64,000 nucleotides of DNA, taken from assembly GCA_008632985.1 (NCBI GenBank), contig QPGO01000020.1, positions 62,001-126,000 on the forward strand, read 5' to 3'. The notes under the pieces were generated by a model. That model searched no databases. It was not told the DNA's origin and was given only the letters and a program-made list of their open reading frames with translations. A program made the position numbers and the translations under genes. The stretch is from Psammoneis japonica. Its lineage: Eukaryota. Shown piece after piece: positions 1 through 24,600 of this stretch (positions are counted from its first letter, which is position 1; each line of letters begins with the position of its first letter).

Positions 1-3000
1 GTTTCTTGTTTGTGCCGGCCCCGGCAATCAACAACAACCATCAACCCTTTTTCTTCCCCACTTGGAGGATGATGAAGTCATGCATTGAAGTTGATGCAAA
101 CATGAGCACAGCAACCACCTGAGCAACTTTGGGCAAGTCAGAGAAAGTCAAGCAAAAACAGAAATTCCTTTGGGATGTCTTCAGCTGTTGTTGCAATGGC
201 CAAAAACATGAGAAATGCAACAGGCCATGTACGAATTTGAAAGAGCATTGATTTTTCCTGCAAGAACAACAGCTGGAAATCATGGTGCTGCTGCCCCAGT
301 CATTTCCAGCTGCACTGTCAAACAGCTGCTGCTGTTTCTTCCACCCACATGTGCTCATTCTGTCAGCTCTTTTCAACCCAGTTTTGTTTTGTTTGTTGTC
401 AGAATCCTGCTGCTTTGTGCTTCTGTCATTTCTGTTTTGCTGCTTGGCTCTTTTTGCACCATCAAACTTGCAAAATTCTGTGGTGCAATCTTTGACTTGT
501 TGTTGGCTTGTTTCCCTTCCTTTGTCCTGTGCATGCTGTCTCTCATGCCCCAACATTGACCCTGCTCTCAAGGAATGCAGAGCTGTCAACCATGCAGCGG
601 CATTGAAACTTGCCATGCAGTTGGTCCACCAACAACACAGCATGTCCCCTGCCATCATTGTTGGGTTTAAATTTGCAACAAAACATGGCAAGATCAACAA
701 ACTTCATGAAAAAGTTGCAACGAGCAAGGCTCTCTGCAACACATCTTGTGCTGCAAGCAAAGGGTGCACTCTTTGCTTGAGCACTTCATTGACAGTTCTC
801 TGACATCCAAAAAACCCAAAAAATGTGCCTCTGTCATCACAATCTTTTTTCAACAGAGCAAAAGTTCCCAGCACACTTCCCACTGACCACAAAGCAAAAC
901 ATGGGAGCAGTTGTGTTGACAGAGCAATGGCTTTCTGCCCACTGGCACCCAATCTTTCATTGTTTTGCCACATCCAGATGGCTTGACAAAATGTGCAAAG
1001 AGAGTTCAAGGGCAGTGTGTGTCACCAAAAAGGCAGCACTGGGATGGTCTCTGCAAGCAGGGCAGAAGAAAAGACAATGGCTGCCAAACAATTGGCTTCT
1101 CCTTTGGCAGGAACAAATCTGGGCACAAAAAGAGGAGATGTGGAGACAGGTTTAGACTGCATTGACACAGCACACGCCAGTGTCAAATGTTGGAGCTTGC
1201 CCCCTTCATTTGCACCAATCATTGTTGAAAACATGCTGCACTGTCAATCAAAGACATTGTCTGCACACTGAAACTACATCATGCAGCACAATGCAAGCAA
1301 ATGTGCACCAAATGCACACTGCCACCATGTGTTGGCTGAGATGAGATGCTGGGCAGCTTGTGCATTTGCTGTTTTTTTATGCTGAAGAGTGTGCTGGCAT
1401 TTTCACAAAAAAGTGATGCATCACAGAAAATTGCTTCAATGTGTGAGCCATCACCAATGGCAGCAAAAGCAACAGCACATAGACTCTTTTTAGCCACACA
1501 GGAGAGTCTGTGAGAGTGTCACTTCCTTCAAGGATTTTGAGTCAAGTGCCGGCTTGCATGCCACACTGGGCATGGCTTTCTTTGCCACTCCACCAAAAAG
1601 AGCACAGAGGGTCATGCACCAACAAACAGTGAGTGAAAAAACTCAATTCAGACAAGCCACAGATGCCCAACAAGATTTGGTGTTCAGAACAACAAATCAG
1701 TGATTTTCCCATTCTAGATTGGCTGCAAGCTCACAAACACATGCTCCTCAATCTCTGTCTCTGCTCAAGACAAAGAAGCTGCACTGTGTGCTGCTGCCCC
1801 ATCACAAACTTGGTGAGGATGAGACTCTTGTCAACAACATTGAACATTGTTTGGTCTTGACAAAACTTGTGCACACAAAAGCTGCTGCACTCACTCTTTT
1901 CTCTTTTCACTGGCAAGGTTCACCAAGTCTCTGGGCTCTTGGTAAAAAAAAAAGCAGGAGAGAGCCACAGCATTGACCTCAGCTTTAGTGTGCAAAATCT
2001 CCAGCCAAAAACCCTTGACAAAAAGCTGCCATCAACTGAGCTGTGAAAGCATCTAAAGACAGCACACCAAAGAGGCAAAGCACCTGGCACTTTGCAGCAC
2101 TTGCACAATCATCAGCTGCTTTTGTCAGGCTTCACCTTCTGGTGATGCCAGCTCAGGCCAACCTGCCTCAACTCTGCCACACACACTGTTTTGGTGTGTT
2201 GGAAGTGTGGGTTGCTGGCCTTCTGGCACAGCTGCACCCAAAAATGGGTTTGTGTTTTTTTTAAACTGTGAGAAAATCCAGAGGAGATGCATGCCCACTT
2301 GCCAGTGATGCCATTCTTGGTTTGACAATTTTGGTGCAAGGCACTCTCTGGCCTGATGGCAACCACACATGCACCTGATTTGCACTTGCAAGTCTTTTTT
2401 TGTAACTGCAACATGGATTTAAAATCTTTGGTCAACAGCTGATGTGGCTGGAGTTTGTGTCAACTTGACTGCTGAATGCCTTGAAATTTTTGGAGATCTC
2501 TTGCTCTCTCAGTGTTGGTGTTTTCATGGGCTTGTTTTGGTTGCTGGTGTGGCAGCAACCAGCCATTCTTTGGTGCAATGGACAGCTTGTTGAGTTTCAT
2601 TTTCAGCATGCCAGTGCAAATGTGGGGCTCTGGGTGCTTGTTTCTGTGCAGCTTCATGCTTCATGTGGCAATCTCAAAGATCTGCCAAGCCTGCACATTG
2701 GAGATCACATGACACAACAACAGGCTGCAGTTTGAAGCTTCTTCCATTCAATGTCAACTGCAACATTGTCTTCACGTGGGTGCCACAATGTCTCAAGATT
2801 CCAACTTACACACAAAACCAACCCATTGCTCAATTTTCATCATCACCATCACACCTGTTGTTTGACTGTGGCTGGTTCACAACAAGAAGTGTTTTGGCCA
2901 GCAGCATTGCTGTCATTGCTCAGATTCTTTGCACAAAGGCACCAGCCATCATCCTTTTTGAAGCAGCACAAAGGGCCCAGCTGTCCTCCCACAGCACTGG

Positions 3001-4180
3001 CACAAAGAGGCTCTGACCATCCTTCTGCAGCAGCACAAAGGCTCCCAACCACCACAAGTGGCAGTGCTGGTGCAAAGACTCTAACCACCACAGGTGGCAG
3101 CAGTGCAAAGGTTCCAACTGTCCTTTCTGGAAAAGTGCAAAGGCTCTGACGGTTCTTTTGCAGTGGCACAAAAGGCTTCAACCATCCGCACAAATGCTCC
3201 CGACCACCACAAGTGGCAGCAATGCAAGACTTTGATCACCACAGGTGGCAGCAGTGCAAAAGCTCCAACTTTCCTTTTGGCAGCAGTGCAAAGACTCCAG
3301 CAGTTGTTCTGCAGTGGCACAAAGGCTCTGGCCATCCTTCTGCAGCAGCACCAAGACTCCCAACCACCACAAGTGGCAGCAACACAAAGACTCTAACCAC
3401 CACAGGTGGGGGCAGCACAAAAGCTCCAACCATCCTTTCTGAAGTGGCGCAAAGGCTCCAACAGTCCTTTTGCAGTGGTGCAAAAGGATCCAACCATCCT
3501 TTTGCAGCAGCGCAAAGACTCTGCACTGCCACAAATGGCGGCAGTGCAAACACTCTAATTGCCGAAGGGCAGCGGCGCAGAGCAGCACAAAGTCTTCAAC
3601 CATTCTTTCTGAAACGGTTCAAAGACTGCAATGCTCTTTTTGCAGTGGTGCAAAAGCTCCCAGCCATTGAAAGTGACAGCAGCACAAAGGCTTTAACTGC
3701 TGCAGGCGGCGGCACAAAGGCAAAACGTGCCATTCATGCATGGGCACAGAAATGAAGCCATGAGAACAAGCTCTGTCAGGCCAACCATGTGTCATGCATG
3801 CATCAACAAAACTCCCATGGCTCATGCAAAATGGGCCATTCTCCTGAACCAGCTGTCAATGCAGACTCTGTCATTGCATTAAGAAAGATGTGCTGCATGA
3901 CATGGCTTTGGGAAAGTTCTGGCGCCACCGCCGCCCTGCCATGTCAACATGATTGTGAAATTGCCATTGGCTTTGTGCAAATTTTTGAATGAGCTAATGG
4001 GGCAACTGCCATTTTGGCATGTTCCCAATTGAAATTGTGTGCTGGAGCTGTGCACGAGTTTCTGGCAGCACTCCAAAAATGAGCTGGACAAGCTGTCTCT
4101 CTGTTGACTTTCCTGCACATTTTGGCACAGGGCTTTCAGGTTGCTTCAGGATGTTGATGTTGCTGTTTGTTTTTGTTTTG
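1..4180. repeat. Degenerate repeat/TE-derived block, depleted of TpA and CpG
   Basis: Very few TA or CG dinucleotides and a large excess of TG/CA. Only spurious Cys/His/Gln-rich ORFs. Normal composition resumes at ~4180. The family cannot be recognised by eye. Confidence 0.6.
2940..3720. repeat. Degenerate minisatellite, ~30-33 bp units
   Basis: Recurrent motifs accaccacaagtggcagcagtgcaaag(g/a)ctc and ccatcctt(c/t)tgcagcagcacaaag. Confidence 0.7.
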
Positions 4181-4677
4181 TATTGCGAATGCATCGGTGG
4201 CTGCAGCAAGGTCCGATTTAAGCATCAATTCATTTGTAGGACGAGTGTCGAAAGTGCGGGTTCGAACGGATGCGAGAATGGAGTGTTTTTGTTCTTTGCA
4301 GACGGCAATGTTCTACTAGCTAGAGTAGGTACTGTTCTTACACCGACAGCATCCTTCATTCAATGACCTCTCCAACAGAAAAAATGATGACCTTTCCACC
4401 CAGTTACCTAGCAGTTACCAAGCCACAGTGTACAATTCTACAGAAGTCACGTGACCGCGACAACTGGAATATAACAGAGAGGCATTTACGCCTCACATTT
4501 TCCCCCGCAACAATACATACGGTACCCATACCTCCCAAAGTCTTTCGATTTGTGGCCAAACATCTAACAATACCGGATGAGTTAGCACAAAAGCATCGAA
4601 TTCGTCTGGTGGATAAAAGAGCACAACTTGCGTAAGGAATACTTTCACGCCATCTTCCTTGAATCAACCCTCGAATC

Positions 4678-5451: not shown

Positions 5452-5553
5452 CCATTCGAAACCATAAGCTGTACCTACTTTAGTAACAAGATGGCATATT
5501 TTTCTTTGCAGAATTCCTTTTTTTTCGTTGAACGTGGAATCATCATTGTTCTC

Positions 5554-6359: not shown

Positions 6360-6574
6360 GGTGACGACGGGAGACCGGAGGGTGTGCGGAGTTCAGATTT
6401 GGATCGGGTCACTCCCGGCTTGGAGGTCTGTAGGATCGGGTGAGAGGGCACGTCGACCGCACCGCGCGCGCTTCGCACACCCCTCACGAGAATGGAAGAG
6501 GCGGATTTTGCACCGAAGATGACAGACGGAAAATCAAAAAATGGGATGCGCGGATTTTTTTCCTACCGTGCTTC

Positions 6575-6738
6575 TGCAGTGACTCACTCGCACGCTTCTG
6601 ACACATAATGTTAATTTTGGACATTAGATTAACGTAGCCGTTTGAGAGGGCTCGCCAGCGCTCGCTGACGCTTAGGCTCTCCCTCTCTTCGGTCTGCTCA
6701 CTTCCTTGTTTTGACACCAACCTCAGCTTGAGCTTGCA
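6575..6738 (+). repeat. 5' LTR of Gypsy element
   Basis: Direct repeat of 11829-11992, with 13 differences in my manual alignment, all transitions. Confidence 0.95.
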
Positions 6739-6972
6739 CTGCAGTTGCAGTCGATTGTAAAGAGCTGAATGAGAAACAACGATGCAACTGACAGGCTTGC
6801 GAAACAAGAGAAAAGAACTTTGAGAGCGAAGGCAGTGAACTGGGCTTTGGAACAAAAATGAGAAAAGGAGATACGAAAACAACGCGAACAGAATGTTTGG
6901 CGATTCGAGTGGCACAACTCGAGTCGAAGGTGGAGCACTTGAAACAGTTCCTTGGTGGACCAACTTGGCCTG

Positions 6973-9900
6973 ATGAGTGATCGCGAGAGCCTCAAGGAAC
7001 CGTGCATCTTGCATGCTGCGAAATTTGCCCATTCGGATTTGGAACTCGCAAAACTGACCCAATCGTATGATGATGGTGGCACGCGCACAAAAAAGTGCCC
7101 TTGTTTTGATGGAAGCAATGGGATTGAAGCGTTGTTGTTTGTGGAAGACCGTTTTCGTAAACTGGCTGCAAAACTTGAGTTCACTGCAGGAGAAGAATTG
7201 TTTGATGATTTTGAAGAAGTGTTGACAGACACAGCCGAAGACAAATGGTCCGCGCAGAAGATGGCAGCTCGTTTTGACCAAGAGTTGGCTCGTTTTTGTT
7301 TGTCGCATTGTGAAACTGAAGCTCGTGACACGATGATTGAATGCTTGCTTGCTCTCAAAAAGCCGTGTGACGTTGAAGTGCAGGCACACGCAGATCGAAT
7401 GGAAACTTTGGCACAACACACAAACAAGTTGCCGGGAAATGATCCAGTTGTCACTCAGAACCAGAAGAAGAAGATGATTTTTGACAGCTTCCCTCTGTCG
7501 TGGCGCGAGATGCACACAAGAGCAGGACGCACGATTGGAAATGACACACTGGCGGAGATTGTCACGTGTGTGAGCATGGAGAAATTGTTTGCGGATGGGA
7601 ACAAGAAGACGTCAAAAAAGCGCAAAGATGGACAGTCTAAAGGTGGCTCCAATGAGAAGAAAGGCAACCACATTGACCCAGAAACCCAATGTCCATTGCA
7701 CACTCACAATCACAAGTGGAAAGATTGCATCATGAATCCCGACTCCAACAACTGCCATCCAAGAACTGATCGTGGCGGTCGCGGGTGTGGTGGCCATGGT
7801 GGTTGAGGTGGCAGTCGCAGTGGAGGTCGTGGTCATGGCAGAAATCAAGGTCGTGGTTGGCAAGGCCGTGGCTGTCAAGGTCGTGGCAGTGGCCGAGGAA
7901 ATTGTGGCGGTCAAGGAAACTGCAACTCTGGTGGCAATGGCGGCGAGCATCATGAAGATGGTGGCTCCCACGTGCAATGTCAAAACGACACCCGAGCCAA
8001 TGCAGATGGCGGCGGTCATGGTGATCCGGCCAGAATGGCTCCTCCTGATGATTGGTCTGCTGAAAGCCATCATCTTGATTCGATGGGAGGGCCTCGTGAG
8101 TGTCGAGGTGGAGCAGGAAGTTTTCGACCTGGTGGTCGCTTCTCGGGACGCCATCGACACTGACCCAATGAGCTTGAAGAGCTGCAGTCCGAGTGTGTCG
8201 CTCATGATTCCCACATGTTTGATGATTGCACTGATTGCACTGATGATTGTCACGCACATGCTGCTGATTTGTTTGATGATGACGATTTCAAAAATTGCAC
8301 TGTGAATGACGAAGACGATGTGGGACTTGAGCACGCTGCACCAACCCCAAAAACAAAACCAACCAAACCTTTGAACGTGGTCCCTGCAACCTCATTCGCA
8401 GCGCGATTTGTGCAAGACAAGGAAAGCAAGCGCGTGATGCGGGTGTTGCTCGACTCTGGTGGAACCCATTCAATGATTCATGCTCGGGTGTTGCCAATTG
8501 GAGCAGTGCCAGCATTGGAGGAAACAGGGCCAATTGTTGTGAAGTTTTGGACGTCAGCGGGAGAATTCAAATCTGCTCGTTACGTTCGACTGCGGGACAT
8601 GGTGCTCCCTGAATTTGACAAGACAAAACGCATTGATGGCATGCATGCACATGTGTTTGACTCACCTTGCCAGCATGACATGATCCTTGGACAGGACTTC
8701 TTGGCGAGAGCAGGTGTCACGTTAGATTTTGAACACGGGATTGTCAAGTGGCTTGATTCAAGCATTGCAATGAAGCCAAGAAACCATCGGATTGGCATCC
8801 AGCAGTGGCTTGACGACTTGACTGATGAGCCAGCTGACGATGATGATGTGTGGGACAGCTGCATCCTCGATGCAAAGCATGAGGAAACGTCCCCTTCTGA
8901 AGCAGCGTCGGCTCAGAAGCACCTCACTGCCAAACAACAAGAAAAATTACGCCTTGTGTTGGAAAAACACACCACTCTTTTTGATGGCACTCTCGGCAAG
9001 CATGCTGGCAAAAAAGTTCACCTTGACATTGATCCTGACGCTGTTCCTTGCCATTCTCGAGCGCATGCAGTGCCGCACAATGATCTCGAGACTTTCAAAC
9101 GAGAACTGGATCATTTGGTGATTCTTGGCGTTCTTGAAGAGGCCGGAACAACGGAATGGGCTGCTGGCACTTTTGTTTGGCCAAAGAAGGATGGTCGAGT
9201 GCGGTGGCTCAGCGATTTTTGGGAACTCAACAAAGCCCTCAAGCACAAGGTTTGCCCTTTGCCGATCATTCAAGATGTGCTGCAGAAGAGAGCCGGGCGC
9301 AAGTTTTTGACTAAATTGGACCTCTCAATGATGCACCATGCACTCGAATTGGATGACGATTCCAAGGACTTGATGACAATCGTGACACCCTTTGGAAAGT
9401 GCCGATGCTGCCGTTCAGCAATGGGTCTGAAGCCGGCTCCAGACATTGTGCAATGTTCAATTGAGAAAACTGTGCACGACTTGGACGTTGACGCGTGTGT
9501 TGATGATCTTGCTCAATTTGATGACGACTTTGACATTCACCTTGACCGTCTTGACAAACTTTTACAACGCCTGGAGGAAGCTGGATTCAAAGTAAATCCC
9601 TTGAAATGCGAATGGTGTGTGCAGGAAACGGATTTCCTTGGGCATTGGCTGACTCCGACTGGAATTCGTCCGTGGAAGAAAAAGGTGGAGGCTGTCCTGC
9701 GGATGCAACCTCCGGAAAACATCAAGCAGCTTCGTTCGTTCCTTGGTGCTGTGACGCATTGTCGCAGTGTGTGGCCTCGGCGTTCTCACCTGTTGAAACC
9801 CTTGACAGATCTCACAGGCAAAGGCTCATGGACATGGACAGCGGAATGTCAGGCGGCATTCGATGAGATGAAAGCAGTCCCAGCGGCTGAAACATTGATG

Positions 9901-11706
9901 GCACACCCGAATCACAACAAACCCTTCCACATCTGCACCGATGCAAGTGATTGCCAGATGGGTGCAGTGATTGTGCAGGATGGAAAGCCCACTGCACACT
10001 GGTCTCGAAAGCTCAATGCGGCGCAACAAAACTGTTCGACAATCGAAAAAGAACTGCCAGCCATTGTCATGTGCTTCCGAGAATGCCGAACAATGCTCCT
10101 TGGCGGCGACTTGCATGCATTCACTGACCACAAGAACCTTGCCTTTCGCACCTTGAATTCACAGCGCGCACTTCGTTGGCGACTCTTTCTGGAAGACTTT
10201 GCCCCTCAATTTCATTGCATTGAAGGCCGATTGAATGTCTTGGCTGATTGTTTTTCTCGTTTGCCTCGCATGGATCCTCCCTCTGAAGGGAAGAGCTTGG
10301 CTCCGGGCAAAGGAACTGTTGTCGATTTTGCCCCGCTCAATTCGAAGTTGGTGCCGAGTGAGGAACCATCCGAAGTCGAGGATTTCCACGATGAGGACTT
10401 GGAGCTCGGCGCATGCCGATTCAAGTGTTGTCGCAACATTGAAAATGAAGGCCACTCACACTTCTTCTCTTTCTTTGTGGATGAGCCGGAACTGTTCGAT
10501 TCCTTCTTGAATTGCCCTGCTGTGCAGGAGATGCAGAATCCAATGACGTTGCAACACATTCAGGAGCATCAGTTCGAGGACCAACAGTTGAACCAGATGC
10601 GCATTGCTCACCCTGATCATTTCCTCGTGGAATGTGTGAATGATCGACCGCTTGCATGTTGTCGTGCGCGACCGAATGATCCTCCAGGACAGTGGAAAAT
10701 CTGTTTGCCGACTGCGCTTGTGCCCGACATCTTACGGTGGTGTCATCTCGTCCTTGGCCATGCCGGAAGCCAGCGCATGCGTGAGATGATCCAGGCTCAT
10801 TGTCATCATCCTGGGTTGTGTTGCATGTGTGATGAATGCTCTTGTGCTGATTGTCAACGTAACAAAACATTGGGTCCTGGCTGTGGAGAGTTGCCCGAGC
10901 AAGAAGCTGCATTAACTCCCTGGTCGGAAGTGGCGGTTGATCTCATTGGCCCATGGAAAATCAAAGCACCAGATGGAGAGATTGAGTTTCGGGCATTGAC
11001 CTGTGTTGATCCTGTCTCTGATCTTGTTGAGCTGGTGAGAATTGAAAATAAAACTGCCCGACATGTTGCCAACCAATTTGAAAACTGCTGGCTTGCACGC
11101 TGTCCCAGACCGAATCGATGCATCCACGATGACGGTGGCGAGTTCACCGGGTGCGATTTTCAGATGCTGTTGCAACGAGCCGGAATTGATGATGTGCTGA
11201 CTGCTTCGTACAATCCTCAAGCCAACGCCATTTGCGAACAAATGCACCAGACCGTCGGCAATGTGTTGCGAACGCTCATTGCTTCCAATCCACCTCAAAA
11301 TCTTCAAGATGCAGCCAGCCTCGTGGACGATGCTTTGGCAACTGCAATGCATGCAACTCGCTGTGCTGTTTCCCATTCTTTGCAGATTTCACCAGGTGCC
11401 ATGGTGTTCAGACGTGACATGATCCTAGACATCCCTGTGCTGGCAGACTCATTGACGATCCAAGGCCATCGCCAGACGCTGATCAACAATGATTTGCAAA
11501 GAGCTGATGCCAAGAGAAGATCCTGCGATTGTCAAGTGGGTGATCAAGTTCCAATCAAGTCGGTTAACCCGTCCAGCCTCGAGCCTCGTGCTCATGGCCC
11601 TCATCCTGTTGTTCAAGTGCATGTGAATGGCATGCTTTTGCTTCGTCGAGCTCCTCATGTGGTTGAGCGCCTCAACATTCGGCGCCTGATTCCTTTTCGT
11701 GGTTGA
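6973..11706 (+). pseudogene. Gypsy gag-pol in a single frame, with two in-frame TGA stops (7804-7806, 8161-8163)
   Basis: ORF pieces 6952-7806, 7972-8163 and 8215-11706 share one frame. Motifs: CPLH..HKW..C (gag), LLDSGG (protease), LDLS and ACVDD (RT, from YxDD), CTDASDCQ (RNase H, from YTDASDY), H..GH...C..C and VDLIGP (integrase). Confidence 0.93.
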
Positions 11707-11828
11707 TCAGGGGGGTTTCTTCCCAACACCTGGGTTTCCTCCTGCCGTTGTGATTTCTTTGGGTTTTGGCAACTGGTTTTGGCCCTTTGCATGATCCTCC
11801 AGTTCTTTTGGATCATGGAAGGGAAGAG

Positions 11829-11992
11829 TGCAGTGACTCACTCGCACGCTTCTGACACACAGCACCAATTTTGGACATTGGATTAATGCAGCCATTTGAG
11901 AGGGCTCGCCAGCGCTCGCTGATGCTTGGGCTCTCCCTCTCTTCGGTCTGCTCACTTCCTTGTTTTGACATCAACCTCAGCTTGAGCTTGCA
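11829..11992 (+). repeat. 3' LTR of Gypsy element
   Basis: Follows the PPT and is followed by TSD GCTTC. Confidence 0.95.
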
Positions 11993-12018
11993 GCTTCTCC
12001 CGTGCAATTCAACACTTG

Positions 12019-15000
12019 CAGCTTTCCCTGCAATCAAACAAAACGCCGCAGAATTTGTGTGGGACACACCAGCTTTTTGTGACATGTCCGCTTTGACGTC
12101 ATCGCAACAATCTTGAAGCACGAGAAAAAGCATGAGACAATGGCGCTGGTGGAATCGGCTTTTTTGTGGTTTTGCTGCTGAGTCCTCTCTGATCCCCCTG
12201 CACAGCTTGACAGCAAACACCCGTCAAAATGTCACAAGGCAATGCAATCAGAGCGTCTCGGTCGACACCGACTGGCATCATCACTTTGCATTTCAGGGAT
12301 GCATGCAAGATGCCGAAGTTCCAGTGCAGATGGATCAAGGCGAACTGTTTTGTGCATGTGACAAAAGAGGCCTGTGCAATTGACAAAGATTTGAACTTCA
12401 ATGCCAAGAAGTTGAACAGTGCATTGAGTGGAGTTGGATCTCCATTTCCAGAAATTGACAAGGACACGTCTGAGAACGATGGCGGGGTTTTCCGAAAGCA
12501 GTTCCGACCGAAGGGAGAGCCGTCTGTTGTGGCACACTGTGCCTGCAAAGAGCAAGAATTGCCAAGGTGTGTGCCCTCAACAATCAATGATCTCAGGTGT
12601 GTGATGTTGACTGTTGAAGAGTGCAACAAGAAAGTAGAAACTCGAGCCGGCTCCAGCAAGAGAACAGCGGGGTACGACGCAAACGAGTGCGCACAGACGT
12701 TGCAGGAAACAAGCAAAGAAAAAGAAAAGGAAAGAACCACTAGAGTCCTCTGCAACAGAGGAGAAATCATCCAATGATGGTGGTGCTGATGAAGACAACA
12801 CTCCTGAGAATGATGCCACGCCTGCCAATGATTTGACCGCTGTTGTTGGCATCTTCTGGGATGACACGACCGTGCGGAACCTGTTCAATGCAGATGATGG
12901 AGAGGATGCAAAAAAGACAATTGAGAAACAGACAGATAAATTGACTTCTGGATTTGCTTTTCATGATGGATGGAAAGAAGTGATCAAAGGAGGTGACCCT
13001 GACAACCTGTGCACACCCAACGACGCTCATGTGTGATTCGATTGAGATGCCAGCATCTTGCGATCGCGCTTGACCATGCGTTGAAGAAGCTGCCAAAAAG
13101 GAACACTGCATGGCTTGACTGCTGTCAGCATGCAATCGATGACCTCAGCGGTGCAGGTGTTAACTTTATGAAAAGTTGCCAAACCGCAGCTGCTTGGCAT
13201 CGCATCTTTAGGAATCTCAGTTCCTTTCCTCATCCCCGACCAAAAGGAAAAGGAGACCCACCGACATTTGAAGCACATCCAAAGATGAAGCGGAAATTCA
13301 TTGAGTTTGTGACAGCAAACCTTTCTCGACTTTCTGCTGAGGTGGCCACAGACCACTTCCACGAAGTGCTTGTCCCGGAATTCTTAAAGAGAGAGAACAA
13401 TGACCATCGCAAGAACGGGGAAGACATCTTGTAGTCAGAACGGGAGTTCCTGAATCAGCATGGATTGCTCACCGGGGAAAACCAACCATGCATTTCTTCC
13501 AATGCAGTTTCCAACTGGATGAATCTATTTGGTTTCTGGCATGGGCCAAACAAAAAGATGCACCATGTTGACAATCATGAATGTCCCGACAATGTGAGGT
13601 GTCGGAATGCGATGGTCCGTCGATGCTTGATGATGGAAGAACGATGCCCACGTTGGATGCAACTTCCAAAAGCCACTGCCATGGACCTTGTCAAAGCTGA
13701 AGCTCTCCCAGCAAAAATGGGGCATGAATGCCAAGTCGATGGAGAAGATTTTGTCGAGCATCATGTCAACACTGTCATCGACCCGGAGCATCCAAGCCTT
13801 GTGCCCAAGCTGTCCGTGCAATTTGGAGGAAGTGAAAGTGTGAGAAAGGATCCGAATGTAAAGCCTGTCATGACATTTGGACAGGACGAGGCCATTTTTA
13901 AGCAACACTTGCTAAGCACAAGCAGCTGGTCGGGTCCCAAAGGTGAGTGGCCGCTGCTGCCCAAAGATGATGGAGAAGGCGTGATGCAGTCTGTGTTTCA
14001 ATGTCGAGAGGTCGGCCTCATTCAAGATGGAGACATTTCGGAAGAGCAACTCCAAGAGACAAATGAAACTCGAGCAGGCAAACACTGCACTGATGAAGAT
14101 GCTGCAGAAACAGCATTCAGCAAGAAGCAGCACAAGCCGAAGTTGAAGAAAAGTCCATTCATCCGCGAGTTCAAGCATGGAGCAAACAGCGACAGACACT
14201 GGAATTGTGACCACATGTTGGTGCAATTGGAGGATTGCGTGGATTGCTTGAAAGTGCTGCATCCTCAATTTGACTGTCATTTCCTTTTTGATCATTCTTG
14301 CGGGCACGACAAGCAGAGAGCAGACGGACCAATCTGCAACAAGCGCACGATGAATGCAGGAGTCGGCAGCAGTCAGAACAAGATGCACCCCACTGAGATT
14401 CTTCAGGCAGAGGGCTTTCTAGGTCCTCATGCTGAAGCAGTTGGCATGTTGTCTGCAGGACAAGTGCAAACAATGGCATTCAGTGAGGAAGACCAGGGAC
14501 CATGCTGGATGATGCCGGAAGAACGAGAAGCTGAGAAATGTGACGCACCTGTCGAGGGTCAAACTGAAACTCGGAAGTTCCTGCGTGATGAAATTTTTGA
14601 CAAGCTTCTACAAAAGAACATCAAGAACATCAGGGGCAAGAAAAAGGATGAATTGATTGACACAGCAAAGAGCAACAACATGCCTGTCAAAGAAACCATT
14701 CAAAAGGTGAAGCACGGATGGGTCAACAAGCCGAAAGGATCAAAGCAAATTTTGCATGAGCAAGGATGGATTGATCCCAATGACCCTGGAAAATGCACTG
14801 TGGATGGCACAAAGGGCAAAGATGGAGAGATCGACAAGTCAACATCTCTTCTTCACTTGATGGCCACTTGCGATGATTTCGTCAACGAAGAGACGTTGTT
14901 GCAAACCATGGGTCGCAAAATGGGTGTGACCATTGACAGAACGCCAAAGTGTCACCCACAATGGCTGGGGAGGGCATTGAATGTTCTTGGGGACTCGCAA

Positions 15001-15464
15001 AGCAGCATTGTTGTTTGCAACCTTTGTCAAGAAAGAGGGGAAAGCAAAACTTTAGAGAGTTGGCACGAGAATCAATGTCATCAAGCGCACTCACGACTGA
15101 CAGGATGCAAAAGTTCTCGCGACGAGCACGACGATGCATTTGTGCTTGCATGGTTCTTTCACAACCTGATGTGTCTCAAGAGGTTCAGCATGAAGCCTTG
15201 TCTCTTGAGACCATTGAAAAGCTTGTCAAAGAGTTCAAAACGCACCGCAGTGCCACTGATTTTGACAAGGGTTTCATTGTGAGGACGCTTTTCGCAGGGT
15301 GAAAAGATGTTTTTTTTGCAGGCAAATAAAAAACTTTAGAATGTGGACAAGTTTTATGTGCAACGCTGCTGGCGATTTTACTTTGGCTTTTTGCATGAAA
15401 AACAAATTTTCCCACCAGTGGCGTGGGATCAATGCGACGTTTGGGTTGGTTGCAGGGAAAGCTG
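12019..15464 (+). mobile_element. Tc1/mariner(ITm)-like TIR DNA transposon, degenerate
   Basis: ~32-bp TIRs: cagctttccctgcaatcaaacaaaacgccgca (12019-12050) and the reverse complement of 15433-15464, with 4 mismatches. Flanks read TG and CA where a TA TSD is expected. Contains a DDE transposase remnant. Confidence 0.85.
12229..15302 (+). pseudogene. DDE transposase pseudogene with stops and frameshifts
   Basis: Motifs FGQDEAIF, PLLPKDDGEG, FLFDHSCGH and TPKCHP/AGEGIECSWG (frameshift near 14960). Tyr positions are replaced by Cys/His. Confidence 0.8.
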
Positions 15465-18400
15465 CAATGGCGAATGACAATCAGACATTGCAAAACCTCA
15501 AAGCACATGTGTCAAAGCTGTCTCCACATGAGCAAGGTTCTGGGAAAGCATTTTGGTGTCAACAAGTGCTCTCGAGCACCACTCGCCATTCAGGCGGGAA
15601 ATCGTGGCACTGGTTTGATGCAGAAACTGCGCAGAAAGGAAGGAATGTTGTGGAACTCAATGAACAGACCAACCTGACAAATCAGTGTTTAGAACTTGTC
15701 TTTTGCACCTGAAGAGCACATGACATGTTTGGATGACTTGCTCACATTGTTTCGGGGGGCGGCAGGAGAGACATTGGCTGAATTGCATGTGGCTTGGGGG
15801 GGGAATCTTTTGCACGCACCCCATTTCATCTGGCCATCTTCCACATGGAATGGGTCAATTGTCAAGAAACAAATGACCTCACACTTGACTTTACATCATG
15901 TGAATGTGTTCAGTCATGAGGACATTGCAGACACCTTGCAATGGCCCCCTGTCGATTGACCCAGTCTGCAGCAATTTGAGATGATTGCAAAATTTTCAGA
16001 GCCCCTCGTCCTTTGAGCATTGAAAGTGATTTGTCCAGTGCTCTGTGCAAATGGAGAATTGCTCCACTGCACACTCACAATTTGAGAATTTGTTTCTTTG
16101 CAACAACTGAGCTCTTCATCAGCCCAAAAGCTTGGCGGACGTCATCAGGAGATGACTCTGACAGCACACGCTTCCTCTGTGCTGAGTGAGACAAAAGAGA
16201 CAACCAGCCACAATGTCATTTTCTCTAAAACCTGCTCAGGCCATCACAGGCATTTTTGACTTTGTGGAGAAAAGCTCACAAAGCCATCTGCAACAAGGCA
16301 GTTGAGAAGCTCAAGGAGAGTGGCCTTGGCTGCACACAGCAGGAGAAACTGCTTCAGCTCCTCAAGACCCTTAGCGATGGAGCTGCCAAGAATGGATGGA
16401 ACAAAGCTGATGGAATGTTGATGATTCCTGATGATCCAGTGGACATCATGTCTGATGTCACCAATTTGTTGACACACTGTGTTCAAATCAAGGCGGAGCT
16501 CATGTCTTTGTTTGTGAGCACATTTGCATTGATCAAATGGCAAGGCCAGCACACGATGCAAGGATGCTGTGCCACCTGCTCATGATTGCACTTTCTGAAG
16601 AAGAAAAGACTGGAATTGTGGTCTGGGAAAAGCAATGCAAAATTCTCAAGAATGACAAGATGAGTCTGTTGGGAAACATTCTGTTGAAGGTGACAATCCA
16701 AGAAAGACACCAATGGAGCTGCAATGAGCATCAGGAGGATGAAAAACTTGGCAATGTTGACAAGTGCATTGACCCAGCATTGAGCAATGTTGCCAAATTC
16801 ACTCAATGCATGCTGCTCTTGGCACCTGATGCAAGCTCTCAAGTCCCATGATGAGACAACAGAAGGTCATCCAATTGAACTTGTTTGAAGGATGCACTGC
16901 AGTGTCCGACAAGACATTTGTTGATTGCATCCATTGCAAGCACAATGAGTGTGATGAAGGACATGACATGGACCCCCAATGAACTTGCAAACCTCATTGT
17001 CAATGAGTGCAAGAAGATGGTTGAGAGGGAGGAATGGAGTGCATCATCCCTTGAGGAGGAAAAGATTCTGGCTCTAGAAGTGAAGGTTGATGTCCTTAAA
17101 CCATCTCAAGGCAAAAAGACCAATCCAAAAATGAGGGAAATCCAAAGAGTCAGAAGAAAGGAGAGAAGAAGACGCATGGACCCAAGCCTGCTTGGTTGGA
17201 GAAGGACAAAAGACACACAAACAATCAACTTCACAAGCCCCAGCATTGGAGCAACAAGCCATGACACTGTTGTTGTCACAAGGACACATGCGGAAAGTGT
17301 GGTGGAAAGTGGTGGATCCATGAACCACGCATGTGAAGGAAAAGCCTTCCTTGCTTGGAAACCATGCGGTGCAAAAAGTCCTTCAGAGAAAAACAATCAG
17401 TCAACATCAACCAAGAAAGTCCAAAAGGACCTCAAGTCACTCAAGCTGTCAGAAGCACTCACTGCTCTTGCAGACAAGATTGAGACCTCAGATGAAGAAT
17501 GGCTGGTGGCAGAGCAAGGCAACGAGCCCAACTGTGATTGGGAAAATCATGGCATTGCAGTCTGCATGATGTCCTTTGCAACATGGTGCACAACTGCAAT
17601 TTGCAGCTCTCTGCTGCTGCTGTTGCTGCCACCAATGCAATTCATGTAGATGGCTGTGTCCTGCAATTGGATCTCCATCACAGTCTGGGGAAAAAATTGC
17701 CAAGAGATGCAACCGCAAATGCTGCTCCAAACAAATTTGTTGCTGGAGCTCACACATCACTGGCAATTGCTGTTTTCTGTCTCATTGTTTTTGTTGGCAA
17801 GGACCCCAACAATCCCAATCTGTGCTTCATTTCACAGTTGCAGTGTTGGAGGAAATGCTGAAGATTGATGCAGCAGGCCCAGTGAAGCATGCAATGGACA
17901 GAAAACAGACTGGTTGATTTGTTGTTTGTTGAAAGTGGGGTCAATTGACTGTCCACAGTCAAGCAATCCCAAACGGGGCAAGAGTCAGGCAAGTTCAAGA
18001 GTCACTGAGCAAGATCAACAACGAGCATCAAAGAAGGCATTCAACACAAATGACAGCAGCACTGGCCATCCTGGCAGTGTGCATGATGGCCCAGAATGAT
18101 GCCCTCAAGTGAGACAAAACATGACTCAATTTGACACAGATTCAGGGCCTGCAGGCATGGACAACTGATGATGCAGGGGATGTGTGTCCAGTGCAGCCAC
18201 AGACTTTGCAAGTGAGCTTGTTCTAAGCATTGAGCCACAAAAGGATTCAGAGGGTCAAGAACAATGGAAGTCATGATGGGCACATTGACAATGGTGCAAT
18301 GACAACAGGGCTGCTCACTTGTTGTTTAAAACCCCAAACTTGCACTGTGCACCCAATGGCAAAGTCCGCCTGTTGAGTCCCCAGCACATCTGTGACATGT

Positions 18401-20379
18401 TTCCATGCTTGACAAGAGCACAACTTGTCAATGATTGAAATTTGTCACATGCATGCTGATTGCATCCACAGATCTTCCCAACACACACAATTGTCAATTT
18501 TGTTTCTTTGCAGTTGTCAAGTCACAACAAATGAATCTTTTTTGCTCATTTTAAGCCACCTGTGTGGCTCATTCTGTCCACATTGTAAACACTTGTTAAG
18601 AACAGTTTCATTTGTTTTTTCCTTCCATTTGTTGTCAGATCTCTGCCTTTGTTTAAAATGCCTGTGTGGCTCACATGAGTGTTTTCTCTGTGTGCAGCAG
18701 TTTGCTGGTTCAGTCTGTTGTGGCAAAGGAAAGTGAGCATGGCAACATGTTTCTAAAAGGCACTCGAGTGATGTGTTTCCCATCACAAAAACATCAAACC
18801 AAACATGAAGATTGTGGAGGCCACAATGCTTCTCATCACTGCATTTCCAGCTGGCTTGCAAGGTGTGTGGATGAATCCTCACATTGCACATGAGGCACCA
18901 CAGTGTGGTGGCTTTTCCAGGACTTCATAAGTCCAGAATCTTGTCTGGCCTCTGAGGTGCCTCAAATTGAAAAAATTTGGTGTCAGTCCCTCCCATGCAC
19001 AGGCAACTGCTGCAAGGGATTTGGGAAGTGCTGCCGTGCTGTTGCTTGGTCAGTTGAAAAATCCAGCACAGCTGCTGTGAAGCACAGGAGTCCAAAGTGT
19101 TTGCTTTTTAAGGATGTGATGATTTCCAGAGCATTTTCATTCAATGATGATCAGAAAAAATCAATCTGAGAAAACACAATGTGATGAGCATGTTGGGCAT
19201 TTTGCCACATGGGAGTTGCTCAAGAAGCAACGACCTTTCAAGACATCAACACAATGCTTTGCAGAGCATTTCTTTTAAAACAAACCCAGAATCAAGAGTT
19301 TTAGAATAAAAACCTGGAACACTCCAGAGCTGTGGCAAATGCTCTTTCATGCCAACAAGAAACAGCAGTGCTTCTAGTCACAGCACAGTTGCCCCAGCTC
19401 TGACCATTTTTGCACTGCTCCTTGCCCTTGCCATTCTCTGGTGGGCAGGCATTGCGAATGTCCAAAAAGGATTCTTTGGTTTCCGTTGCCTCTGGCAATG
19501 CATGTGTGGCATTTGTTTGACACCACCAATCCATGCAAGACACCGTTTGTGGTTCTTTCCACATTCAAAACTTCTCCATCAACAAAGGGACAGCCGCAAG
19601 GGCATTCCATGTCTCCCGCTTGTGCCTCTTCCTTCATTTCTTTCATCATTTTGGTGCCCATGGCAGAGGCATTTGTTGTGTTGCTTCTTGGCAATGGCAA
19701 CATTAATTTGAGACACACAATTCTTGTCACAACAAAAATGCTTCTGCTGTCGATCCTTTTGATCAAACCTTTTGATCAAACCTCACCAACAAAATCTTTG
19801 CATCTCATGAATCAAGCAATGGCTCTGCTGCTTGGAAAGCCACTGCCAGATGACAGAGACTGGGAAGATTGTTTCATTTTCTTCCCTGTCACCACTGCAA
19901 ATGAAGACAATGGCCAGAGTTCACGAGCCACACACCCTCAGTTCCAAGGGGTTCATTCTGGTGTTGAGTTTGATGACATGTCTTGGCATCTCCAATTTGA
20001 GCAACAGGCTTGCCAGGTGGATGGTGCATGATGCACAGGTCAAAGCCAATTGAGAAGCAAAAATGGAGCATGTGGTGGTGTCCCCATGTCCCAGCACACA
20101 TTTGCCAAATGCCAAGCCAGATCATCATCATCGCTGCAAATGCACATTGGTTTGAGTTGCGGCCTGCATGACACGCACCCCAGATGCACTCAATCTGCAT
20201 TTGTTGAGCAGGTTGGCCCAATTGTGGTGTCTTTGCACTCTTGATTTGGGAAGCTGCAATCCTTCTTGTCTTGGTGGGCAGCAGCAGCCCTGTCACACGA
20301 TTCCTTCACAAACAAGAAGATGCCCGGCTGCACAAAGTGTGGAAGCATGAGGCCCACAGATGTGGCAAAGGAGGTGTGC

Positions 20380-21600
20380 AGCCATCTTGAGATGGCATTG
20401 GAGGACTCCAGTGGGTTGCCAGGGACATGCCAACAACCATGGTTGGGGAGCAAATGCCTTGTCTTGTGTCAATGCAGCACCTTGTCTCTCTGACATGACT
20501 GGCTTTGGCCCAGCCAGCCAACCTGCAGAAAGAAGAAAACCATCTGTGTGACAGGGCAAGTGCTCCATTGTCTTGGGATGGCATTGGATGACTCCATTGG
20601 GTCCCTGAAGATGCAACAACAACAAAGGTTGCAAAGCAAAGGCCTTGTCTTTTGTCAATGCAGCACCCAGTCTCTTTGACATGACTGGGCTGTTTGGCCC
20701 AGCCACCCCACCTGCAAGGACAAGAAAACCATCTGTGTGACAGTGCAAGTGCTCCGTTGTCTTGGGATGGCATTGGATGACTCTGTTGGTTCCCAGAGGA
20801 TGCAATGACAACTGTGGTTGGGAAGCAAAGGCCTTGTCTTGTGGCAACACAGCACACTGTCTCTCTGAGGCTGACATGACTGTGTTCTTTTGCCCAGCAA
20901 CCCCACCCACAGAGAGACAAGAAAACCATCTGTGTGACAGTGCAAGTGCTCTGTTGTCTTCTTGGGATGGCTTTTGGCAACTCCATTGGATCCCAGAGGA
21001 GCTAACAACAACCATGGTTGGGAAGCAAATGTCTTGTCTTGTGTCAATGCAGCACATTGTGTCTCTGACATGATTGGGTTTGGCCCAGCCAGCCTGCCCG
21101 CCCACCCACAGAGGTGAGAAAACCATCTGTGCAACAGCACAAGTGCTCAGTTGTCTTGAGATGGCTTTTGGTGACTCCATTGGATCCCAGAGCAGCCAGC
21201 AACAACAATGGTTGGGAAGAAAAGGCCTTGTCTTGTGTCAGCGCAGGACCTTGTCTCTCTAACATGACTGGGCTTGGCCCAGCCATCCCACCCACAGAGA
21301 CAAATCTGTGCAACAGTGCAAGTGCTCAGTTGTCTTGGGATGGCTTGGTGACTCCATTGGATCCCAGAGGATCCAACAACAACAATGGTTGGGAAGAAAA
21401 GGCCTTGTCTTGTTGGGAAGGAAAAGCCTGGTCTTGGGCCAATGCAGCCTTTTTTCTGTCTGACATGATTGGCTTGCTTTGGCCCAGCCACCTTTCCCAA
21501 AGAGACAAGAGAGCTTTCTGTGCTGTGTGACAGTGCAAGTGCCCAGTTGTCTTTGGATGGCCTTGGGTGCCTCCATTGTGACCCAGGGGAGCCAACAACA
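20380..21600. repeat. Tandem array of ~190-bp units, ~6 copies
   Basis: Motif aaaaccatctgtg(tg/ca)acag..caagtgct recurs at ~20537, 20726, 20922, 21120, 21302 and 21520. Confidence 0.85.
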
Positions 21601-24600
21601 GCTGGGGCCGGGAGTCAGTGAATGGAAATTCATGGTGTTCCCTGTCTCTTGTTTGGATGGAAAGCCAAGAGAGAGCAGAACAGCAAGACCCACTGTCAAT
21701 TGCTCACTTTCTTTACAAGGTGGGTCTCCAAAGTTGTCATTTTGCTGGCATGAAGGGTCTGTTTCTGAGCTTTCTGGAGAGAGGCAATTGTCTTGTTGGC
21801 AGCAGCAATTTTTGAACACACCAAATGGCAAAAAGGTGTTGATTGAGGTCCCAGAGCTGGGAGTGGGAGTGTGCAGGCAGAAGTGTGAATTTCCAATCTC
21901 AACAAGAACACTTTGGTGTGATGAAGTCAAACCTGTTGAATGCATGCCTGATGTCAATGAACAAATGATTCATCAAGGCTCACAGTTTGGCCAAAAACAT
22001 GAATTGTCCCTCCCTCACAAGACACCAAAAATGCAAACTCAAGTCACAAGCATTGCATGAAAATGAGAGCGGCAGTGACAGGCAGTGGCATTGCAGATGG
22101 GACAGAATGGAATGCAGGACACAAGATGAGAAAGAGAAAACAAGTGGCAAATGCACAGAGATTGGGTGCACAATGCAAACAACTGACACTTGCACACATC
22201 TTTGCACACAGACATCTGGACAGTGACCTGAGATGCAAAGGAAGACGGCAACCGGGAAGGGCACAAAGGTGAGCAAAAGCAGCACATGAGACAAGATTGT
22301 GGGAAACGCAAGACATGTGTAAAAACTGATCATTGGCACAAAGTTTTCTCCAGTTGCATGCAACATTTTGGCCAATCAAACAGAAGGAACAACCATCAAA
22401 CCAAATTGGAAGGTTCTGGTGATTGTTGCACACCCTTTGTTGACAATTGTCAAGAACTTGTTGTGAACACAGGATTCTGAACAAGAGAGTGTGAATTCTG
22501 AACAAGAGCAAATGTGTTTTCCAGATGCATTGTGGGCAAAGACACAAAAGGTCTGCAAGCTGGCTGAAGGTGCAGGGGGAAGCATGGGTTGCAAGCAGTG
22601 CACACTGCACCGGAGTCAAAAGAGAAATAAACTCACTCTTCTCCTGAGTCCAGAGACCAATGTGGCAATGTTCAACCTTGCTCCTGGTTGCCAGAAGTTT
22701 GAGGCCTTCCATGATGAATGTGGAATCAACAACACTGCTGAAAACAATGATCCTGTTGAAGCAAACAAAGCAAACATTGTGAGCAACAAATGGGAGGAAG
22801 AAGACAAGGAAATCCAATGACTCAGGGTTGGTCAGATGCACCTGGACCTTGAACCCAATGAAGGCTGTGTTGCACCATGCAAAGCATGACAAGCATGCCT
22901 CAGGGTTCTTGGAGAGCAATGCTTCAGTTGCTGCTCCACTCAATTTGGATGGACCACCTGAGGGCATGAGTGAAACAAGTTCACTCTAAGTTGTGACAGA
23001 TGAGGAAGGTTGGCAGAAAAAAATGCATCACCACAATTGTTGAGACTTCACCAAAAATGTGGGAACATCTCATTCCTGAAACTGCAAGAAATGGTGGAGC
23101 AGGGAGTCATCCCAAAGCATTTGGCAAAACACAATGCACCTGCATGCTCCTCCTCATGCATGTTTGCAAAAGCAACCAAGCACAAGTGGCAAATTCTGCA
23201 ACAAGAAGGAACACAATTCACAGAAGCCAACATGACCGGGTCAAGTGATTTCAGCAGATCAGACAGTGTCGCTGACTCCGGGGCTGACTGTGCGCCAGAT
23301 GGCGGGGTTCTGACAACCAAGCTGAGATGCAAGTGCGCAACAGCATGTGTTGATCAACACTCCCACTTCAACCATGCGCACCTGCAAAAGACAGCAAGCA
23401 TGGAAGAGATGTCAGAAGGAAAGAAAGCCTTTGAGCTCATGGCAATGAATTGCTGGGTCAAGGCACCAACTTGCCATGCAGACAATGGGGCATCTAAGGT
23501 GAGGCAATGGATGCAAGCATGTTGTGACCAAGGACAAGGATTGCACATGCAGGCATCAATGCACACCACATGAATGGCTTTGCAGAGCACTGCATGTGCA
23601 AGCTGCAGGAACATGATGCATGAAGTGTGCTCATGCGTGCAAATGGATGATGGCCTTCAAGCAAAAACACAGCCAACTTGTGACCACATGCTGTCCAAAA
23701 AGCAAACAATGCAATCAATGAAACATCCAGCTTCCAGAATCCTGGGTGCAAGACTCCTCTGACTCAGTTGCAAATGCAAACAGACATCTTGAGCAACCCC
23801 AAATCATGTGCCAGACAACCAGCTCCAAACAAACTGCCCATTTCACAAGTGGAGGCAATGATCAAGGGTTGGAACATGCTTGAGGGTGAGTCCAATGTGT
23901 GTGGCAGCCATGCGGACAAGCCCAGTGCATGGCAGGAATGTTGCCTTGGCGCCAAACAGAGCAACAGTGCACACAAGTCCCCAGCTCCATGTGCAATGTG
24001 ACCCCAGCTCCCAGCTTCCATGTGACAAAACAGGACAAGTTTGACTCAACATGGCAAATGAAAGCCAGAACTGTGAGTCAGAGGGAGGTCAACAAACCAG
24101 CCAAAGGCAAGAACAAGATGCTGCTCATGCTTGAAGCTGCCAACAAGCAGAGCATTTGTCAGCAAAAAGAGGTGGCTGATGCCTCCTTCAGAAAGAGCAT
24201 CAAAGAGGATGAGGTTCAAGAATGTGACAAACCATTTGCAAGATTTTTACAAAACACTGGGGTCACCTAAAGCCAGCAAGCAAGTTGTCAATGCTGCAGC
24301 AGCTGGGTTGCCTCTGGCACAGCCAGAATCTCCAGAAGGGACCTTGGCAGCAGGTGGGTGAGTCTGATCTGCCCAGAGTGCCAAGGACATCAGAGACAAA
24401 CACAAGATCAGGGCAACAGAGCTGGTCAGTTGAGCAGCCAGCACTGGCAATGACAGCTGAACTTGGCACAGATGCAGATGGGAACATTGAGAGAGAGACA
24501 TCTTCACTGACAGCTGCTTCACCACACAATGAATCACACCCATCTCAAATGATGCCAACCCTCTTCCAGAACACAAAGTTTCAAAACAGACCCTGATGTG

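Follow-up and report, generated by a model that had tools for sequence, protein, structure and literature searches.

The 64,000-nt stretch of the diatom Psammoneis japonica analysed here (the window; positions 62,001 to 126,000 of contig QPGO01000020.1, assembly GCA_008632985.1) contains a complete long terminal repeat (LTR) retrotransposon of the Ty3/Gypsy type at 6575-11992 on the forward strand. Its polyprotein Pol has lost nearly all of its tyrosines in a frame that has stayed free of frameshifts. This feature is real and is a new case of a kind of hypermutation first described in 2026, in which the dinucleotide TpA is turned into TpG or CpA. That the element was subjected to TA-targeted hypermutation of its DNA in place is held with high confidence. 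As the best overall explanation, a dead Gypsy element swept by domain-wide TpA to TpG or CpA hypermutation of the DNA according to an adenine-deaminase model is put forward as probable, with some reserve.

Loss of tyrosine from an open gag-pol frame

The Pol open reading frame (ORF) encodes 1163 amino acids (AA), only two of which are tyrosines (in SARYVR and TASYNP), while cysteine and histidine make up 4.3 % and 4.8 %, respectively. Its 3492 nt hold 13 TA dinucleotides, two TAC codons and no TAT or ATA codons. Among the 120 homologues listed, tyrosine makes up 2.6-4.6 % in every one, and no tyrosine-poor relative was found. A preliminary description of this DNA had proposed a Gypsy Pol with only two tyrosines (SARYV, ASYNP), which is confirmed by the ORF count, the Pfam matches and these homologues. 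For a closer comparison, the window Pol was aligned with its 40 best homologues, and a column was regarded as conserved if at least 70 % of the homologues agreed, resulting in 535 columns, 23 of them tyrosine. None of these 23 tyrosines is kept; they now read cysteine (12), histidine (9) or arginine (2), compared to 23, 22 and 22 tyrosines retained by the control homologues P0001, P0002 and P0003. The motifs previously quoted as tyrosine losses (ACVDD, ICTDASDCQ, MMHHALEL, GKCRCCR, QQNCST and QFHCIEG) all fall among the lost positions, and the active-site motif of the reverse transcriptase, YxDD, is affected as claimed, with residue 428 changed to cysteine by a TA>TG step.

At the codon level, 87 of the 535 conserved columns are changed, comprising the 23 tyrosine and 64 other positions. 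Single TA>TG or TA>CA steps explain 21 of the tyrosine changes, and the remaining two need both (TA>CG). The non-tyrosine changes include 17 single TA-site steps, 10 single CpG-site steps and 36 others. For the TA-site group, every I>V, N>D, T>A and M>V case is preceded by a codon ending in T, and the V>A, L>P and L>S cases have routes via GTA, CTA and TTA. The CpG-site changes are of the types R>Q, R>H, R>W, T>M, A>V and P>L. The other changes consist of 17 transversions, three other transitions and 16 multi-step changes, a few of which could have arisen by double TA or CG steps. The preliminary description had named non-TA substitutions as frequent as those at TA sites as the outcome that would speak against it; each of the intact control homologues departs from this consensus at 22-30 columns, so that the 36 other changes found are near the level of any intact family member. 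TA-site changes thus far exceed any surplus of other changes, contrary to that outcome. Mutation near saturation at TA sites, with about 90 % of the expected TA lost and without a measurable excess of background change or frameshifts, is therefore supported.

Gag and pol share one frame at 6943-11703 (4761 nt) with no frameshift, in agreement with the earlier claim for about 4.7 kb, and with two in-frame TGA codons (7804 and 8161). The remaining five frames over this region contain 20-114 stops each. A metagenomic relative (L002) has the same layout, gag-TGA-pol in a single frame, and its gag aligns across the window codon at 7804 (BLASTP, E-value 2e-9). For this reason, gag probably ended natively at the TGA of 8161-8163, and the TGA at 7804-7806 is probably an acquired nonsense codon in gag, for which CGA>TGA would be the simplest origin. 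The description of the reading frame as intact thus holds with regard to frameshifts and for pol, but only in part for gag. Apart from this gag codon, that account has to be extended by the domain-wide extent of the process and by a parallel CpG decay, both of which are described below.

An open pol frame as a mere by-product of the loss of TAA and TAG was considered and rejected. As these two codons decrease, TGA increases, and the stop density per codon is still 0.026 in the depleted DNA compared to 0.035 in normal DNA. At the former density, an open frame of 1163 codons has a probability of about 5e-14, so that it is not a side effect of stop depletion. The codon logic of the substitutions offers a different reason. 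A TA>TG or TA>CA step converts TAA only to TGA or CAA and TAG only to TGG or CAG, and turns no sense codon into a stop. Since such steps make no stops and substitutions cannot shift the frame, the protein is ruined although its frame remains open. Of the two processes, only CpG decay can generate a stop, from CGA, and pol retains 19 in-frame CGA codons.

The assignment of the element follows from its structure (Table 1). The Pfam domains of Pol occur in the order protease, reverse transcriptase, RNase H and integrase, which is that of Ty3/Gypsy, and the LTRs (TG...CA, 92 % identical), a 5-bp target-site duplication and a polypurine tract are those of an LTR retrotransposon. The Pfam matches of protease and integrase do not reach their gathering scores, which is in keeping with a copy that has been mutated. 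With the YxDD tyrosine and all 23 conserved tyrosines replaced and a TGA in gag, the catalytic residues for transposition are not in place. Judged from its sequence, the element is a dead copy of a Ty3/Gypsy (Metaviridae) family.

Mutation in place across whole domains

The same five nucleotides, GCTTC, on both sides of the element show that this is one insertion, and therefore the LTRs were identical at integration and their differences arose in place. Of the 164 LTR positions, 13 now differ between the two copies, each by a transition and without any indel. The 5' LTR keeps six TA and nine CG, and the 3' LTR keeps one TA, located in TTAA, and six CG. Five of the six TA in the 5' LTR read CA (3) or TG (2) in the 3' LTR. 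At one site, one copy has TG and the other CA, therefore each LTR must have mutated independently. The fossil record of the element thus sets about 90 % of TA lost against no indels in 4.76 kb and no transversions in the LTR pair. Together with other Pol changes at control level, this agrees with the proposal of the preliminary description that TA mutation approached saturation before any indel arose and ran faster than background mutation.

A 250-nt repeat gives a second comparison, in which the copy at 15903 has TG or CA where the copy at 25535 has TA and CG. Because this second copy (25535-25785) and the 5' LTR were spared, repetition alone is an insufficient trigger. The spared LTR adjoins an active-looking gene with spliced-looking contigs, since contigs from run X2 skip the GT..AG-type segments 5848-5953 and 5978-6065, and an active promoter may protect the LTR. 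The X2 contigs do not cover 6673-14000 at all, from which no conclusion on expression was drawn. The inferred TA events comprise 23 TG and 15 CA and are thus balanced between the strands. Strand-coordinated clusters were considered and dropped, as a runs test on these 38 events gave P=0.40 and the variance of TG versus CA in 400-nt bins is alike in depleted (1.96) and normal DNA (1.78). The mutation took place after integration, in DNA, and on both strands.

The depletion of TpA is not confined to the element. Four domains covering 37,000 of the 64,000 nt (Table 1) contain 120 TA, an observed/expected (o/e) ratio of 0.05, compared to 1039 TA (0.58) in the 27,000 nt of genic DNA between them. 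The o/e ratio of CpA and TpG is raised to 1.79 in the depleted blocks (1.17 between) and that of CpG is lowered to 0.30 (0.95 between), at a nearly equal GC content (0.488 and 0.485). GpC is also raised (1.29 versus 1.05), which is an expected by-product of GTA>GCA and TAC>TGC and thus an additional marker of the process. The domains are sharp-edged, with borders falling within 200-400 nt. One of the edges lies inside the element at about 6800, and past the element the depletion continues unbroken into non-Gypsy DNA up to 25400. Hence, the process affects only certain stretches of foreign or repeated DNA and is limited by the domain, not by the element or gene.

Within the element, TpA is about 90 % gone at a CpG o/e of 0.66-0.83. 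Since the element and its 3' flank to about 16000 are TpA-poor at a CpG o/e of 0.5-0.8, in contrast to about 0.1 in the other blocks, TpA loss precedes CpG loss. The depleted domains contain 30 open frames with a length of 180 AA or more, and these hold eight tyrosines in total. The 120 surviving TA sites are not random. Relative to their share in normal DNA, TTAA is enriched 7.2-fold and CTAA/TTAG 3.4-fold, ATAC and ATAG are reduced to 0.15-0.17, and ATAT has no survivors. Most survivor classes agree with a simple model in which susceptibility is set by the base before T and decreases from A through G and C to T, as derived by arithmetic on these 120-site counts. Such a non-random survival fits an enzyme with an extended site preference.

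A second protein in the same domain as the element has been affected likewise. The ORF at 13435-15279, unrelated to Pol, contains no tyrosine at all and belongs to a family with 2488 homologues at an E-value of at most 0.001 and a typical length of about 900-1100 AA. Compared with 30 aligned homologues with a tyrosine content of 2.6-5.8 %, it keeps none of 13 conserved tyrosines, which are replaced by histidine (5), cysteine (4) or other residues (4), whereas the controls keep 12 of 13, 13 of 13 and 11 of 11. A Pfam match was found neither for this ORF nor for any of the eight homologues tested. The ORF probably encodes a protein belonging to a mobile element of an undescribed kind. A relationship to the ORF at 33441-36701 was considered and rejected.

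Contigs assembled separately from the public run X1 provide information on the assembly and on other copies. They contain 62 % of the sampled 31-mers of 4001-14000, and 441 of the 2125 contigs aligned to the window match it at 99 % or more. The summed depth is about 64 in the single-copy flank, 1800-3000 (30-45-fold) in the element and about 330 (about 5-fold) in its 3' flank; therefore, the family has tens of copies. These differ from the window by A>G at 99, C>T at 100, G>A at 92 and T>C at 90 places (381 transitions), compared to 46 transversion places. Eight adjacent CA<->TG doublets occur among the 40 difference rows listed, as would be expected if a shared ancestral TA (or CG) had mutated independently in different copies, and not from a systematic miscall. 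As a separate observation, one short X1 contig joins 6533/6554 to 11993 via 13 letters resembling the pre-insertion flank and a single GCTTC, at a depth of 53 compared to 64. It has a few differences in the left flank and suggests that the insertion is absent from another haplotype or from a paralogous locus, but a single short contig is too weak to be used.

None of 21 metagenomic Pol loci has a TA o/e below 0.45, a result obtained with search patterns derived from the query, which may miss distant hypermutated copies. Nine of the 21 (L006, L008-L013, L015 and L016) have a CpG o/e of at most 0.36 (0.08-0.36) at normal TpA. TpA loss is therefore separable from CpG decay, and in other hosts the Gypsy lineage is subject to CpG decay only.

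Mechanism, rival explanations and known systems

These patterns show the spectrum and direction of the changes, their timing after integration, their occurrence on both strands and their limitation to domains, whereas a deaminase, its guidance by chromatin and a defensive role are inferred. After integration, TpA was changed to TpG or CpA, each time through a single transition at the palindromic TA step, which may lie on one strand or the other. The targets are whole silenced, repeat-rich domains with sharp borders rather than single elements, alongside ordinary CpG decay. An enzyme might deaminate an A following T to inosine, which would be read as G, and the chromatin or methylation state of the domain would supposedly bring this editor there. 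Tyrosine codons (TAY) thereby become cysteine or histidine codons, which keeps the frame and destroys the protein, including the YxDD tyrosine. Adenine deamination is the preferred chemistry, although at about even odds. tRNA adenosine deaminases act on A34, which is preceded by a near-universal U33. In the main alternative, which is unlikely, a TET/JBP-type enzyme would modify or oxidise the T before A, for example to 5-hydroxymethyl- or 5-formyl-uracil, and the base would then mispair with G, giving T>C on either strand. 5-formyluracil mispairs with G, the products would be the same since TA is palindromic, and a base modifier linked to chromatin would be in keeping with repeat domains as targets. 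Against this variant, the sole experimental precedent, a preprint on Bigelowiella natans, proposes adenine deamination, which according to its main text is itself a hypothesis (Mettrop et al., bioRxiv 10.64898/2026.01.13.699255).

An edit made before integration would be very improbable as the source of the pattern. Retrotransposon RNA or cDNA could be hyperedited by an ADAR- or ADAT-like A-to-I activity and the edited copy then inserted; the family has many diverged copies, and ADAR hyperediting with a 5' U preference is known, as mentioned in the Discussion of the same preprint (bioRxiv 10.64898/2026.01.13.699255). However, reverse transcription makes the two LTRs of an insertion identical, and here they hold six and one TA. 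The depletion furthermore starts inside the element at about 6800 and runs into non-Gypsy DNA to 25400, where the unrelated ORF at 13435-15279 was hit equally. Finally, editing of sense RNA predicts TA>TG only, while both strands are represented among the 23 TG and 15 CA events. Taken together, these results speak against editing before integration.

Technical and compositional causes are more improbable still. A systematic base-calling or assembly error at modified bases in repeats has to be considered for a draft assembly with three N runs in the window, as methylated motifs cause systematic errors in some long-read assemblies. Nevertheless, such an artefact is barely credible, because the separately built X1 contigs hold the same words and include the 441 close matches, because a deterministic miscall would not give CA in one copy and TG in another, and because normal TA content resumes within 200 nt on the same contig. 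Similarly remote is an origin by selection or ancestral composition, in which a functional element or foreign DNA would lack TA (and CG) for reasons of its own, or by GC-biased gene conversion among repeats. Mobile DNA often avoids certain words, and the frames do stay open, but the LTRs and non-coding DNA are depleted equally, the GC content is unchanged, and the CpG shift is opposite to the expectation for gene conversion. TA-poor intact relatives were found neither among the 120 homologues listed nor among the 21 metagenomic loci. Since all 23 conserved tyrosines are lost, including that of the reverse transcriptase active site, Pol is not under purifying selection.

Several points weigh against in-place hypermutation by a TA-specific enzyme or limit its interpretation. 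Three LTR differences (LTR positions 34, 37 and 143) lie outside TA and CG contexts, and the two tyrosine to arginine changes require TA>CG, so that there are exceptions to the specificity. For the direction of mutation, the evidence comes from a protein consensus, a single LTR pair and a single repeat pair, and not from a copy-level DNA phylogeny. Run X1 may share its sample with the assembly and is only partly independent. As TA is self-complementary, A- and T-centred chemistry give the same products, which these data cannot separate. The pattern is a fossil one, and both the enzyme and the modified base are putative. Moreover, the hypermutated regions of B. natans retain many TpA and have no link to CpG in the main text of the preprint; hence, the two systems may differ.

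That preprint describes TpA-targeted hypermutation of integrated viral DNA in B. natans (Mettrop et al., bioRxiv 10.64898/2026.01.13.699255). According to its main text, 231 of 302 nuclear mutations in mutation-accumulation lines fell in two integrated viral regions; A>G or T>C accounted for 230 of these 231, and every one of these GC-biased changes was on TpA, at a rate of about 6e-7 per site per generation, which is about 1000-fold the background (bioRxiv 10.64898/2026.01.13.699255). It also reports 324 low-TpA coding sequences, enriched for reverse transcriptase and DDE domains, and proposes an ADAT2-like adenine deaminase as a hypothetical enzyme (bioRxiv 10.64898/2026.01.13.699255). As far as described there, the likeness is close, with TpA changed to TpG or CpA and almost nothing else, in invading or silenced DNA only, and with CpA and TpG rising as TpA falls. 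The element shows the corresponding restriction to A>G and T>C at TpA in 21 tyrosine and 17 non-tyrosine single TA steps, with CpG decay as a second, separable component. In contrast, the host here is a diatom (Stramenopiles) and not a chlorarachniophyte (Rhizaria), and the signal is a fossil, near-saturated one (TpA o/e of 0.05, compared to 0.45 in the region of a nucleocytoplasmic large DNA virus given in the preprint). The targets here are an LTR retrotransposon and repeat domains with CpG decay alongside and a domain edge within the element, whereas those described in the preprint are integrated viral regions. The TTAA-sparing site preference seen here is absent from the main text on B. 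natans and may be in its supplements. A report of TpA hypermutation in diatoms was not found in the full-text literature, a search with subscription journals and preprint supplements outside its scope.

Other known systems share parts of the pattern. Repeat-induced point mutation (RIP) of ascomycete fungi, the closest classical counterpart, also makes dinucleotide-specific transitions in repeated or foreign DNA and leaves domains of distinct composition with dead transposons. However, it runs in the opposite direction, from CpA to TpA, raising TpA and AT content and creating many stops, whereas here TpA is lost, GC is unchanged and no stops are made. Instead of C>T at CpA with an enrichment of TpA, the depleted blocks have a TpA o/e of 0.05 with CpA and TpG at 1.79. 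Repetition alone is also not sufficient here, as the 5' LTR and the 25535 repeat copy were spared. The decay of 5-methylcytosine at CpG in methylated transposons affects the same domains (CpG o/e of 0.30 overall and about 0.1 in older parts) with the same products TpG and CpA, but it cannot remove TpA, which is about 90 % gone from the element at an only mildly lowered CpG. ADAR hyperediting and APOBEC3 resemble the process in being deaminase-type, with context-dependent transitions inactivating retroelements. They act on RNA or nascent cDNA before integration and on one strand, in contrast to changes made here after integration, on both strands and beyond the element.

Neighbouring features and implications

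The coordinates of the element, its parts and the depleted domains are compiled in Table 1.

Table 1. Features of the retrotransposon and of the depleted domains in the window.
Feature	Position	Strand	Evidence or remark
TpA- and CpG-depleted domain	1..4200		Dinucleotide maps
Target-site duplication GCTTC, left copy	6570..6574	+	Same 5 nt outside each LTR
5' LTR, 164 nt, TG...CA, largely spared by hypermutation	6575..6738	+	Direct repeat D9 and alignment; 6 TA and 9 CG kept
TpA-depleted domain containing the element	6801..25400		CpG o/e 0.5-0.8 to about 16000, about 0.1 beyond; edges sharp, about 200-400 nt
gag, in the frame of pol	6943..8163 (coding 6943-8160)	+	In-frame translation; TGA at 7804-7806 and 8161-8163
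pol ORF, 1163 AA, 2 Tyr; frame open from 8164	8215..11706	+	ORF list, Pfam, homologue alignment
Aspartic protease domain, AA 74-162	8434..8700	+	Pfam PF13650 (Asp_protease_2), E-value 1.6e-4, below gathering score
Reverse transcriptase domain, AA 323-478	9181..9648	+	Pfam PF00078 (RVT_1), 39.9 bits
YxDD Tyr codon, now TGT (Cys), residue 428	9496-9498	+	Y>C via TA>TG step
RNase H domain, AA 541-662	9835..10200	+	Pfam PF17919 and PF17917 (RT_RNaseH(_2))
Integrase zinc-binding domain and catalytic core, AA 832-885 and 915-1001	10708..11217	+	Pfam PF17921 (Integrase_H2C2) and PF00665 (rve), both below gathering scores
Polypurine tract, immediately 5' of the 3' LTR	11817..11828	+	Read from sequence; putative function, from position
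3' LTR, hypermutated	11829..11992	+	1 TA and 6 CG remain
Target-site duplication GCTTC, right copy	11993..11997	+	Same 5 nt as left copy
Tyr-less ORF unrelated to Pol, 615 AA, 0 Tyr, fragment of a family of about 1000 AA	13435..15279	+	Homologue alignment
Mutated copy of the 250-nt repeat	15903..16153	+	Partner 25535-25785 at edge of normal DNA keeps TA and CG
TpA- and CpG-depleted domain	41201..45600		Dinucleotide maps
TpA- and CpG-depleted domain with 2-kb duplication	47001..56800		Dinucleotide maps

The depleted blocks also contain repeats of other kinds. Tandem arrays are located at 20318-21600 (period of about 190 nt) and 2931-3669 (about 160 nt), with copies that are 60-85 % identical. 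A direct duplication of 2 kb (47816-49768 and 52313-54318, 4.5 kb apart) differs by 52 transitions and 19 transversions, including eight CA<->TG doublets and 13 sites with CG in one copy and TG or CA in the other, and its alignment has 121 gap columns. The two copies may represent the long LTRs of an older element that can no longer be recognised. Pfam searches of 24 other frames from the depleted domains and two ORFs of normal DNA gave no match for any of the 26.

The normal DNA contains ORFs of 1086 AA at 33441-36701 (-) and of 661 AA at 37011-38996 (-), both with ordinary tyrosine content and no Pfam match. Within the latter, a tandem duplication of 282 nt (37310-37871, 90 % identity) shows an ordinary spectrum of 18 transitions and nine transversions with TA kept. 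The host gene at 29056-31191 (+) encodes a methionine-synthase-reductase-like flavoprotein. The 120 homologues listed for 29056-31188 are at most 57 % identical, and the 12 with a named organism are 11 diatoms and one transcriptome labelled as dinoflagellate. Long ORFs with few introns likewise fit a diatom. The first ORF of the gene, at 28036-28995 (+), contains the segment LYGSATGNAE...TGNGD...RF twice, so that this methionine-synthase-reductase-like gene appears to have two flavodoxin-like N-terminal modules. Its homologues are about 1000-1100 AA long.

For genome annotation, the finding has a practical consequence. As the mutation never makes stop codons, dead elements keep open frames of kilobase length and will be annotated as intact proteins. 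Their near-zero tyrosine content provides a simple flag for such pseudo-proteins.

If confirmed genome-wide, TpA-directed hypermutation would be present in a second eukaryotic supergroup, in algae that are ecologically dominant and genetically tractable. This would also open a comparative route to the enzyme through genes that are common to this diatom and B. natans and missing from diatoms without the signature. The saturation on LTR retrotransposons, the domain rather than element borders and the coexistence with CpG decay go beyond the published case and point to guidance by the chromatin or methylation state. Rather speculatively, diatoms, or at least this one, might possess a chromatin-guided TpA-erasing editor, a kind of inverse RIP without stops that acts alongside CpG methylation and belongs to the same ancient system as that of Bigelowiella, as a defence shared across Stramenopiles, Alveolates and Rhizaria (SAR). 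In this tentative scenario, the TTAA-sparing and ATA-preferring signature would be the fingerprint of the enzyme. If true, the SAR supergroup would have a genome defence that kills transposons without creating stop codons.

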